The notes: generated by a model from the sequence alone, not told the origin. A DNA stretch of 32,000 bases from Methanopyrus kandleri AV19 (GCF_000007185.1 NC_003551.1:660001-692000); one strand, 5' to 3'. Numbered from the stretch's first letter, positions 25,725-27,623 are shown. Made by a program: numbers and translations.

Positions 25725-27623
25725 TTGGGCATAGAATGGGAGGGAGTCAAAGTCGAGATAGGAGAGCTCGTGGTGGAAGGAGACTCCGAAAGTGAGATGG
25801 AGGGGCCGACCCGCCGCGAGTTGCTCCCGTGGGATCGGACGTTGGCGTCGGTCTACGACCTGGCCGTGGTTCCCGGTGATTCGGAAGAGGAGCGACGAGA
25901 GGTAGCTCGTACGATAGTAACGCTCTGTTGCGAGGGGACGGCAGGGCTCATCTCCACGGCCCGACTCGTGGTGGAACTGCTGCGTCAAACGGGGGAGAAC
26001 CTGGACCCTGGATTCGACGCGGAGACGCCGCTCCCCCTCTACGAGACGCTACTGGGGAGTTCCCCCGAGTGTGCAGATGACCTCGAGGCCGGATTATCCT
26101 ACGCGGAGCGGGAACTAACGTCCTCGGTTTCGGAGCTCCTGCGGTCGCATTCCCTAAAGGGTTACGAGTCCGTGGCCATGCACGCCGGTGCGATCGGTCT
26201 CCTCGCGATGGAGATAGCCGATGCGACCCCCTCCACGCTGATGGAGGTCACGGAGTCGGAGGAAGTGTTTGAGATCGGGACGGATGATCTGCCGAGACGT
26301 CCCACGGTGTTACTGGTCGGTCATCTACCGCTCTTGGGGCACATCATCACCGAAGAGCTAGGAACGCTCGCGAGACAGGTGGAGCTCGTCGGACTAACAC
26401 ACACCGCGTGGCCTAACCGAGAGGACCACGTCAGGGTCGTAGGTCCCCTGTCTATGTACCATGAATACCTCTCTTCCGGGTTCGCGGATGTGGTAGTGGT
26501 CGACGGGGCGTGTCCGGGAGAAGACGTGATCGAAGCGGCACGTGAGGGCGGATCCAAGCTCGTCGCCACCGTCGGGGCCCGCGTGGCGGACCTACTCGAC
26601 GTCACCGACTACCCGGTTGAGGAGGCGGTCGAAGTCCTCGTCACCGAGGAGGACGCCGTTTACGTGGAGGAACCCATCAAGGCCGTGGAAATCGCCGCGT
26701 GGGCGGCGCTTCGAGTCGAGGGATCGCGCGACCGAAGAGAACCTCCTCGGAGGGCTTTCCGGGTCGGCCCGCCGACTCGCCTCACGGACGTAGTGATCCG
26801 AAACGTAGGTGTTCCGGTAGTAGCCGGCAACATTCCGGGAATCGTCGTCTTGGTATCCTGCCCCGAGAAATCCGCGGACGTCGAAGAGCCCGCCAAGATC
26901 GCCGAAGTCCTCCTGGAGCGCGGGTACCTCGTGCTGGTTCCGGGTTGTCTAGCCGTCGCGCTAGGTTCGTACCTGGACGACGATGGTAAAACTCTGTACG
27001 AACGGTACCCCGACACGCTTCTCAACACCGGTCCCTGTACCTCCGCCGCGCACTTAGTCGGGGCTTGCATCCGTGTGGGGGTCATCTTCGGTAAGCTCCC
27101 TATCAGAGGGGAGTTCGTGCGGGTCGCCGATTACGTACTCAACCGGGTCGGGGCTTGCGTAATAGCCTGGGGTGGCGAGTACTCGGAACACCTGGTTTCG
27201 GCCGCCTACGGGGTCACTCGATGGGGTATTCCGGTGGTACTGGGTCCCGACCCGGAGGCTGGTTCGTTGTTGGTCGAGAAGAACCCGAAGGTTATCGACG
27301 CTTGCTCGGGAGAGGAGGTGGAGGATCCCACCCCGGAGCACCTGAGGTGCGTGGTTTCGGATTGGAAGGAGGCGGCGATCACAGCCGCGCGGCTTTGTAT
27401 GCGTCCCAACGATACCCCGGAAGGCCGCCAGAACAAGGTCGAGTCGTACGTCGAGCTGTACCGGGAGTTGTACGGAGAATTACCCCCCGATCTTGACCTG
27501 CTCATCCGGGATGAGAGCGATATCCCGGTGACGCTCAGGTCCGAGATACGGGAGCTGCTGGAGGAGACCGGGTGGACACCTAGATCGCGCGCATCCGATC
27601 CTACCCTACTACCCGAGGGGTGA
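25725..27623 (+). CDS. Degenerate CdhA paralog (CODH alpha-like, 632 aa) lacking the N-terminal Cys cluster motif and the ferredoxin insert
   Basis: Collinear with CdhA at both ends, for example LCMRPNDTPEGRQNKVESYVELYRELYGELPPDL versus [34 protein letters not shown]. The TTG start is preceded by GGGGTGA. The stop TGA overlaps the cdhC GTG. See the corresponding finding for the cofactor-ligand comparison. Confidence 0.8.
   Translation: MGIEWEGVKVEIGELVVEGDSESEMEGPTRRELLPWDRTLASVYDLAVVPGDSEEERREVARTIVTLCCEGTAGLISTARLVVELLRQTGENLDPGFDAETPLPLYETLLGSSPECADDLEAGLSYAERELTSSVSELLRSHSLKGYESVAMHAGAIGLLAMEIADATPSTLMEVTESEEVFEIGTDDLPRRPTVLLVGHLPLLGHIITEELGTLARQVELVGLTHTAWPNREDHVRVVGPLSMYHEYLSSGFADVVVVDGACPGEDVIEAAREGGSKLVATVGARVADLLDVTDYPVEEAVEVLVTEEDAVYVEEPIKAVEIAAWAALRVEGSRDRREPPRRAFRVGPPTRLTDVVIRNVGVPVVAGNIPGIVVLVSCPEKSADVEEPAKIAEVLLERGYLVLVPGCLAVALGSYLDDDGKTLYERYPDTLLNTGPCTSAAHLVGACIRVGVIFGKLPIRGEFVRVADYVLNRVGACVIAWGGEYSEHLVSAAYGVTRWGIPVVLGPDPEAGSLLVEKNPKVIDACSGEEVEDPTPEHLRCVVSDWKEAAITAARLCMRPNDTPEGRQNKVESYVELYRELYGELPPDLDLLIRDESDIPVTLRSEIRELLEETGWTPRSRASDPTLLPEG

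Follow-up and report, generated by a model that had tools for sequence, protein, structure and literature searches.

A cofactor-depleted CdhA paralog in the acetyl-CoA decarbonylase/synthase operon of Methanopyrus kandleri, a candidate non-catalytic docking subunit for acetyl-CoA synthase

We analysed a 32,000-nucleotide (nt) stretch of DNA from Methanopyrus kandleri AV19 (hereafter the window, with all coordinates counted from its start), which carries an operon for the acetyl-CoA decarbonylase/synthase complex (ACDS). An additional gene of the carbon monoxide dehydrogenase (CODH) alpha type, here termed cdhA', stands in this operon directly ahead of cdhC, the gene for the acetyl-CoA synthase (ACS) beta subunit. 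Its product, CdhA', has kept the fold of CdhA while losing every ligand of the B, D, E and F clusters, and its features suggest a redox-dead accessory subunit that may dock ACS. Matches to Pfam and TIGRFAM models gave the operon order cdhA-cdhB-cdhA'-cdhC-cooC-cdhD-cdhE, the same as had been proposed in a preliminary description of this DNA. The CdhA encoded in the window was 99% identical to M. kandleri CdhA. The operon consists of the following genes, with product lengths in amino acids (aa):

22947..25229, plus strand: cdhA, canonical CODH alpha subunit, 760 aa, parent of the paralog (TIGR00314, 1028.1 bits, cutoff 781.3)
25235..25714, plus strand: cdhB, epsilon subunit, 159 aa from TTG at 25235, divergent (Pfam CO_dh, 48.8 bits)
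25725..27623, plus strand: cdhA', 632 aa, TTG start, cofactor-depleted CdhA paralog (BLASTP, Pfam, TIGR00314 and MAFFT alignment)
27632..29035, plus strand: cdhC, ACS beta subunit, from a conserved TTG (TIGR00316, 745 bits)
29032..29805, plus strand: cooC-type Ni-insertion ATPase (Pfam CbiA and AAA_31), its slot unchanged in all loci
29798..31000, plus strand: cdhD, delta subunit (TIGR00381, 495 bits)
31014..32000, plus strand: cdhE, gamma subunit, truncated by the window end (Pfam FeS and CdhD)

The start of cdhB was set by comparison with orthologs of 157–162 aa; the open reading frame (ORF) of cdhD opens at 29753, with ATG 29798 as its probable start (orthologs of 400–401 aa).

CdhA' aligned with CdhA collinearly over its full length (33% identity, E = 4e-107, BLASTP), which bears out the collinearity of the 632-aa and 760-aa proteins previously judged by eye. 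It passed the Pfam Prismane model PF03063 (68.2 bits, against a gathering threshold of 27) and failed the cdhA equivalog model TIGR00314, scoring 383.7 bits in two stretches, or about half of the cutoff. The exact 632-aa product is on record for strain AV19 as AAM01933.1, WP_011019088.1 and UniProt Q8TXF5, where it is named 'Putative acetyl-CoA decarbonylase/synthase complex subunit alpha-like'; the NCBI copies in other strains are labelled 'hypothetical protein'.

To establish which cofactor ligands remain, every ligand column was scored in a MAFFT alignment of nine CdhA' orthologs and 13 canonical CdhA, with ligands assigned by motif and by the scheme of Inoue et al. 2019. All 25 ligand and catalytic columns were canonical in the CdhA of the window. 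The altered and retained sites of CdhA' are these:

25869..25895, plus strand: site of the deleted B/D cysteine block, residues ~49–57 (VPGDSEEER), a ~21-residue gap opposite CdhA CDMCCMCTYGRCNLAEGRRGAC in 9/9 orthologs
26322..26324, plus strand: His200, C-cluster His ligand (VGH), invariant in the nine orthologs and all canonical CdhA
26397..26402, plus strand: Thr225-His226 in place of the CC motif (C-cluster Cys1 to His), GLTHTAW in 9/9 orthologs
26511..26513, plus strand: Cys263, C-cluster Cys2 (DGAC), invariant
26718..26780, plus strand: Cys-free linker, residues 332–352, replacing the ferredoxin-like E/F insert (alignment; predicted local distance difference test score, pLDDT, ~80–87)
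26859..26861, plus strand: Cys379, C-cluster Cys3, invariant
26946..26948, plus strand: Cys408, C-cluster Cys4, invariant
27036..27038, plus strand: Cys438, C-cluster Cys5, the Ni ligand in canonical CODH, invariant
27189..27191, plus strand: His489, replacing the catalytic Lys (K610 of CdhA; K563 of ChCODH-II), His in 9/9 orthologs and Lys in all canonical CdhA

The two ligands of the type I D cluster (C-x2-C-C; C56 and C59) and the four B-cluster ligands (C60, C62, C67 and C77) were all gone from CdhA' through the ~21-residue deletion, and the six positions held gaps or residues other than Cys in all nine CdhA' orthologs and Cys in all 13 canonical CdhA. The eight E/F-cluster cysteines, which make up two CxxCxxCxxxC motifs in the ferredoxin-like insert of canonical CdhA, were likewise lost, with ~100 residues reduced to the Cys-free linker; a Pfam scan returned no Fer4 match in CdhA', against 12 Fer4-type matches in CdhA. 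The preliminary description had reported both losses, placing the N-terminal Cys-rich block of CdhA at nt 23112..23177 and the ferredoxin-like insert at nt 24114..24263, and the alignment agrees with it to within one codon. Its third observation, the change of the canonical GICCTAW motif to GLTHTAW, also held and proved invariant in the nine orthologs. At the C-cluster, five of the six ligands were kept (His and Cys2–5) and Cys1 was replaced by His226, so that the C-cluster-type contexts said to be retained are indeed present, as H200, C263, C379, C408 and C438. Two catalytic changes come in addition to that list: His489 in place of Lys, and Leu (Phe in one ortholog) in place of the acid/base His, H100 of CdhA. 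Since 14 B/D/E/F ligands, one C ligand and both acid/base residues are gone, ferredoxin-coupled interconversion of CO and CO2 by CdhA' is very unlikely. That canonical electron transfer and CO oxidation were improbable had been suggested before, and the alignment leaves the suggestion standing: all 14 electron-transfer ligands were absent, and neither the B/D cysteines, nor the CC motif, nor the ferredoxin motifs reappeared anywhere in it.

This depletion is shared across the genus and does not look like decay. A homolog search recovered eight CdhA' orthologs (72–94% identity), from Methanopyrus only. The gene order cdhA-cdhB-cdhA'-cdhC(-cooC-cdhD-cdhE) was identical in seven other Methanopyrus genomes, as far as the contigs reach, the cdhA' frame was intact at the DNA level in eight genomes, and ~55% of columns were invariant across orthologs. 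In pairwise Nei–Gojobori comparisons (28 pairs), the ratio of non-synonymous to synonymous substitution rates (dN/dS) of cdhA' had a median of 0.13 (range 0.11–0.25, with dS up to ~1.4), compared with 0.06 for cdhA, 0.05 for cdhC, 0.06 for cdhD, 0.13 for cooC and 0.15, the highest, for cdhB. Judged by these ratios, cdhA' is under purifying selection of a strength like that acting on the accessory genes of its own operon. A pseudogene, which the preliminary description had already argued against, is excluded by the dN/dS range, the intact frames and the conserved synteny, with no sign of the relaxed selection expected of one. A literature search found no Methanopyrus proteome or transcriptome.

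The translation signals around the gene point in the same direction:

25714..25720, plus strand: Shine-Dalgarno sequence (SD) of cdhA', GGGGTGA, 4 nt 5' of the TTG start, read from the sequence
27615..27623, plus strand: GAGGGGTGA, SD of cdhC, overlapping the cdhA' stop codon, 8–9 nt 5' of the cdhC TTG start

The first of these, earlier described as a strong SD, was found at the expected place and is kept as GGGGTGA, GGGGAT or similar in four other Methanopyrus loci (L003, L004, L005 and L007). The coupling of the cdhA' stop to the cdhC start through an overlapping GTGA, on the other hand, was probably a mis-assigned start. Translation of cdhC most likely begins at TTG 27632 and not at the overlapping GTG at 27620, because this TTG is conserved in six other genomes and preceded by GAGGGGTGA; the latter is conserved before the cdhC TTG in L001–L005 and L007, and is retained even in L004, where cdhA' stops earlier. 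The gap between cdhA' and cdhC is therefore 8 nt, and the ribosome-binding site of cdhC falls within the last nucleotides of cdhA'. Together with 10 nt between cdhB and cdhA', this leaves no room for separate promoter or terminator signals, and the short gaps and conserved SDs fit co-expression of cdhA' with its flanking genes.

With respect to origin, CdhA' and M. kandleri CdhA formed a bipartition in 100 of 100 neighbour-joining (NJ) bootstraps over 101 CdhA-family sequences, in answer to the earlier suggestion that a lineage-specific duplicate be looked for. CdhA' was 42% identical to M. kandleri CdhA and 34% to other CdhA, with the higher value in every region; in the C-terminal extension, the identity of CdhA' to M. 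kandleri CdhA (51%) exceeded that of M. kandleri CdhA to other CdhA (45%). From three-way distances, the branch after duplication was ~3.5 times longer for CdhA' (0.77) than for CdhA (0.22). On these comparisons CdhA' is a duplicate of cdhA that arose in the Methanopyrus lineage.

We then considered what the depleted protein may have retained its fold for. An AlphaFold2 model of CdhA', built on a 101-sequence alignment, reached a pLDDT of 87.3 and a predicted template modelling (TM) score of 0.89, with both deletion scars ordered, and it keeps the entire CdhA fold together with the N-terminal hairpin. A Foldseek search of the model against the PDB returned only CdhA structures as top matches (TM 0.81–0.85, E = 3e-40), namely M. 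thermophila 9c0q/r/s/t, Ca. Ethanoperedens 8riu and M. barkeri 3cf4. The model superposed best on 9c0t_A, the ACS-bound form, which is no more than a weak hint. Rossmann fold 2 and the C-terminal extension, the parts of the protein that have changed least, are also where ACS beta binds CODH alpha in M. thermophila (Biester et al. 2024, PMC11474084). In that complex Arg500 of the CODH (MetCODH) hydrogen-bonds an A-cluster ligand, and Leu504, Val507 and Phe601 form a CO alcove (PMC11474084). We mapped the contact residues through a phmmer alignment to 31ox_C/9c0q_A, which reproduced the published residue identities:

26799..26822, plus strand: helix alphaA of Rossmann fold 2, with Arg359, Val363 and Val366 corresponding to MetCODH Arg500, Leu504 and Val507, invariant in CdhA'
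27087..27089, plus strand: Phe455, corresponding to Phe601 of M. thermophila CODH (helix alphaB, CO alcove), Phe in all orthologs read except P0005 (Ser)
27258..27620, plus strand: C-terminal extension, residues 512–632, the most constrained part of CdhA' (dN/dS 0.085, 50% identical to CdhA)

Rossmann fold 2 followed closely (dN/dS 0.10, 53% identical to CdhA), and the helical domain and Rossmann fold 1 were freer to change (dN/dS 0.16 each, 38–39% identical). Rossmann fold 1 showed the largest relaxation relative to CdhA, 0.16 vs 0.043.

The same docking surface of CODH does the job of the A1 domain of bacterial ACS, and A1 has been suggested to be a duplicate of CODH Rossmann fold 2 (PMC11474084). 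When the Rossmann-2 fragment of CdhA' was searched against the PDB with phmmer, it matched the A1 domains of C. autoethanogenum (6yua_A, 45.2 bits), Moorella (26.8 bits) and Carboxydothermus (21.7 bits), and no CooS-type CODH; the matched fragment of the parent CdhA found 6yua_A at 24.3 bits, left the other two A1 domains unmatched and matched CooS enzymes instead. Identity to the A1 fragment was 50–52 of 153 positions for CdhA', 37–39 for M. kandleri CdhA and 32–47 for 45 canonical CdhA, and nine A1-type states were unique to CdhA' vs one unique to M. kandleri CdhA. Val363, in the alcove, is the residue seen in the bacterial A1 domain. CdhA' has a cluster-less Rossmann-2-type fold with an Arg and hydrophobic alcove residues that would face the A-cluster, as would be expected of an A1 equivalent. 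It is not covalently fused to ACS domains A2-A3, being a separate ORF in another reading frame, 8 nt before cdhC.

An exhaustive hidden Markov model search with a CdhA' profile, covering 1.84 billion representative sequences, gave 140 matches, among which only three proteins outside Methanopyrus (P0135, P0143 and P0147, 640–680 aa) were full-length and without B, D, E and F ligands. Like CdhA', they share V363, L402, T439 and E488. The C-site of P0135 and P0143 has decayed to three Cys, with the His and the Ni-ligating Cys lost. P0135/P0143-type proteins share 12 exclusive states with CdhA', vs two in a control comparison, and the four that lie in Rossmann fold 2 (V363, L402, T439 and E488) are all A1 residues. 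Two of the five genomic contexts of such alpha-like genes were cdh operons, with the gene next to cdhC or cdhA:

L011/L013, 7035–15319: P0143 cluster with frhB-like gene, alpha-like gene, cdhC, 72-aa ORF, cdhD, cdhE and cooC
L015 (uncultured archaeon CAYMRE010000040.1), 4–6769: P0135-type alpha-like gene, canonical cdhA (799 aa), cdhB, cdhC and cooC

P0143 (680 aa) comes from the metagenome-assembled genome (MAG) of Thermoprotei archaeon B15_G16 from Guaymas Basin (QMRC01000002.1). No canonical cdhA or cdhB was found within the 18 kb read around it, so far as that stretch goes making a protein without most C ligands the only alpha-type gene of this cluster for ACS and the corrinoid iron-sulfur protein (CoFeSP). 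P0135 itself and the L014 copy are orphans outside cdh operons.

A common origin of CdhA' with P0135/P0143 was considered and rejected: the grouping appeared in 34% of NJ bootstraps once long branches had been added, CdhA' is nearest to M. kandleri CdhA in every region, and by pairwise identity it is no nearer to P0135/P0143 than to any CdhA. We read the grouping as long-branch attraction combined with convergence, and the cluster-less, ACS-associated alpha-like proteins as having evolved repeatedly and independently. The proposed alternation of ACS between docking partners and the existence of archaeal prismane-CdhC fusions (Zimmer et al., PMC13370988) fit with such proteins. Three side observations concern these relatives. 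P0147 (656 aa; L012, 1352–3322), which keeps Cys2–5, adjoins an FAD-dependent oxidoreductase gene. P0140 (695 aa) keeps the four B-cluster Cys and has lost every C-cluster ligand; it and P0147 are degenerate CdhA relatives of the P0009-like clade. The CdhC of L015 has a MarR-like winged-helix match at its C-terminus (residues 415–460).

Taken together, we suggest, with a probability of roughly one in two, that CdhA' is a non-catalytic, redox-dead accessory subunit of ACDS that docks ACS beta in an A1-like manner. It would probably be co-translated from the operon just ahead of CdhC and could give ACS an additional site for docking and capping at little cost in metal, doing in trans what the A1 domain of bacterial ACS does in cis. 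Each C cluster of a CODH is served by a B cluster belonging to the other subunit of the dimer, and each subunit contributes half of the D cluster. Given this arrangement and the strict conservation of the D-cluster cysteines in M. kandleri CdhA, a heterodimer with CdhA is less likely than a CdhA' that works alone, either monomeric or homodimeric, or perhaps together with epsilon. The remodelled C-site (His200, His226, Cys263, Cys379, Cys408 and Cys438, with His489 nearby) may still bind a metal centre; the retained ligands suggest one, with either a structural or a CO/Ni-binding role.

Several points weigh against a docking subunit of this kind. In canonical CdhA, too, constraint is strongest in Rossmann fold 2 and the C-terminal extension. 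Almost every CdhA has the ACS-contact residues, and CdhA' may therefore have kept them by descent and not through selection for docking. The identity-based A1 comparison rests on a single A1 sequence. The AcsB profile NF007078 gave CdhA' a score of 58.8 bits, which is at the upper end of, and not beyond, the 42–58 bits of ten canonical CdhA. Since the profile cannot by itself tell the two apart, the case for A1-likeness depends on the phmmer and identity comparisons with single sequences. The shared A1-like states could also reflect parallel relaxation after loss of catalysis and not a shared function. Within the orthologs, P0005 has Ser at the Phe455 position, and P0006, a 600-aa ortholog from a Methanopyrus MAG, has a 32-residue in-frame deletion between two VGAC repeats that takes out helix alphaB including the Phe455 equivalent; this deletion may be real or an assembly collapse. 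When the long-branch alpha-like proteins were added, the NJ placement of CdhA' became unstable, with 33–34% bootstrap for either grouping. Expression of CdhA', its membership of ACDS and its docking to CdhC are all predictions from sequence, and a purely structural role leaves five invariant C-site ligands and two new His unexplained.

A possible though less likely extension of the docking proposal is that the free-standing, redox-dead alpha paralogs, CdhA' as well as the independently derived alpha-like proteins of Thermoprotei and other archaea, are trans equivalents of A1, capping the A-cluster and forming a CO/acetyl alcove without making CO. If so, they would be living examples of the proposed path to A1 that runs from CODH duplication through cluster loss and placement by the ACS gene to fusion, and archaeal ACDS would have a third docking station besides CODH and CoFeSP.

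Among other explanations, the one that survives best takes the unexplained C-site as its starting point. CdhA' would then still be a metalloenzyme or sensor, with a His2Cys4 site (plus His489) holding a remodelled Ni/Fe-S or hybrid-type cluster for non-redox or self-contained chemistry, or for CO/Ni sensing or storage, resembling CODH clades B and D. Five of the six C ligands are kept and the sixth has become His, itself a metal ligand; the catalytic Lys has become His too, invariantly in nine orthologs, while none of the 14 other cluster ligands survives, and the decay of the C-site to three Cys in P0135/P0143 shows that its retention in CdhA' is not automatic. Repurposed CODH scaffolds have precedents in the clade B RfCODH (PMC13592312) and an inactive clade D enzyme. 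Nevertheless, electrons have no path once B, D, E and F are missing, neither acid/base residue is left, and Rossmann fold 1, the source of His200, His226 and Cys263, is the domain that relaxed most. The contrast of 5/6 with 0/14 is also less telling than it looks, since the 14 ligands were lost through two deletions and so represent few independent events, and the fixed operon slot beside cdhC argues for a role within ACDS. We regard this reading as unlikely, although a metal centre and a docking function are mutually compatible.

It is distinctly unlikely, in our estimate, that CdhA' is a maturation scaffold or chaperone that works with CooC and briefly keeps hold of Ni, or of a cluster precursor, until it is passed on to CdhA (C-cluster) or CdhC (A-cluster). 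The Ni-ligand Cys438 and other C-site residues would suit such a function, cooC lies in the operon one gene downstream of cdhC, and the alpha-like genes of L011 and L015 are also in cooC-containing clusters. Yet cooC is standard in cdh operons without an alpha-like gene (a published survey has CooC in 62% of clade A operons), and 632 aa with ACS-docking elements exceed what a metallochaperone needs. Nor do we know of any CODH/ACS maturation pathway that uses a CODH paralog, and a literature search found none.

Very doubtful is the replacement of one CdhA by CdhA' in an alpha-alpha' heterodimer with a single active C-cluster, tuning CO supply or the architecture of the complex. The shared, collinear fold with its N-terminal hairpin would allow it, and a single cdhB lies between the two alpha genes. 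However, the active C-cluster of CdhA would be cut off if its partner had no B and D ligands, and the very strong constraint on the D/B cysteine block of M. kandleri CdhA (dN/dS 0.021) implies the persistence of CdhA homodimers. Finally, a decaying, functionless duplicate carried along by the operon is extremely improbable: CdhA' does fall below the TIGR00314 cutoff, evolves ~2–3.5 times faster than cdhA and is mostly labelled hypothetical by NCBI, but all 28 gene pairs show constraint at dS values of up to 1.4, the frame is intact in eight genomes, over half of the columns, the start codon and the SD are conserved, and the predicted fold is confident.

In comparison with known systems, CdhA' shares fold, domain order, operon and C-terminal extension with canonical archaeal CdhA (Inoue group A-1; 3CF4, 9C0Q-T, 8RIU), along with four of the five C-cluster Cys and the His ligand. 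It differs in lacking B, D, E and F, and in the changes of Cys1 to His, Lys to His and the acid/base His to Leu. With bacterial ACS A1 (AcsB) and the archaeal prismane-CdhC fusions (PMC13370988) it has in common a cluster-less derivative of CODH Rossmann fold 2, which in A1 packs on the A-cluster; the likeness extends to the Arg, Val, Val and Phe alcove residues and the nine A1-type Rossmann-2 positions, and the placement of its gene directly 5' of the ACS gene repeats the order of A1-A2-A3. Unlike A1, a fused domain of ~300 aa, CdhA' is a separate full-length chain comprising helical domain, Rossmann 1, Rossmann 2 and C-terminal extension, and it keeps C-site ligands. Unlike the AcsB-type prismane domains, it is a recent Methanopyrus duplicate, with putative docking to ACS.

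Degenerate Ni-CODHs (Inoue groups A-2 to A-6, clade B RfCODH and clade D ChCODH-V) resemble CdhA' in their altered active-site or acid/base residues and presumed loss of CO oxidation. All of these keep the B cluster, which CdhA' does not, groups A-2 to A-6 being without a D cluster, and Inoue et al. 2019 describe the B-cluster Cys as conserved 'with a few exceptions'. The CdhA' pattern, H/H/C/C/C/C with L/H, occurs in none of these degenerate enzymes and matches none of groups A-1 to A-6. The protein is absent from the supplementary table of Inoue et al., though the CdhA and a clade C CooS of Methanopyrus sp. KOL6 are listed there. The latter, a CooS-type CODH of 638 aa (WP_088335699.1) encoded outside the window, brings the CODH-family proteins of the genus to three: CdhA, CdhA' and CooS. 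P0135 and P0143 differ from CdhA' in their independent origin, being nearest to canonical CdhA by distance, and in their more decayed C-site.

A literature search by organism, CdhA paralog, accessions and locus tags found no paper describing CdhA'. What is already known is that the gene is catalogued as 'alpha-like' and that degenerate CODHs are a recognised theme; what we did not find described are the total loss of electron-transfer clusters including B, the H/H/C/C/C/C pattern, the genus-wide selection, the A1-like convergence and the archaeal parallels. The CODH surveys that we compared omit this protein class, and, since similar proteins recur in unrelated archaea, an accessory subunit of general occurrence may have been overlooked. 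In annotation terms, 'two CdhA copies' in Methanopyrus genomes should not be taken as two CO dehydrogenases. More broadly, CODH/ACS is among the oldest carbon-fixing machines, and how archaeal ACS, which has no A1, is capped and handed over between partners has been addressed structurally only in 2024–2026 (PMC11474084, PMC13370988). CdhA' offers a handle on the non-catalytic scaffold function of CODH in ACDS, on the origin of A1 and on the minimal ligand set of a C-type cluster.

A few further observations were made on the flanking genes. The cdhB product is unusually divergent, scoring 44.6 bits with TIGR00315 against a cutoff of 101.2, whereas cdhA, cdhC and cdhD score far above their own cutoffs; this could be an adaptation to serving both alpha and alpha'. 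The C-terminal extension of CdhC (window positions 28890–29035) contains a strongly acidic run, EEEEEEEEKAPEEEAPAEEP, in a part of the protein for which Zimmer et al. propose the role of a disordered tether. Upstream of the operon, between alba and cdhA, lies an ORF:

20541–22889, minus strand: 782-aa ORF without a Pfam match

The same slot holds a gene of 780–861 aa without a Pfam domain in L002, L003, L005 and L007 and no called gene in L001, L004 and L006, so that its occupancy is variable. The window also contains low-GC patches at 8001–9000, 11001–12000 and 14001–15000 (0.48–0.53, vs ~0.61 for the window).

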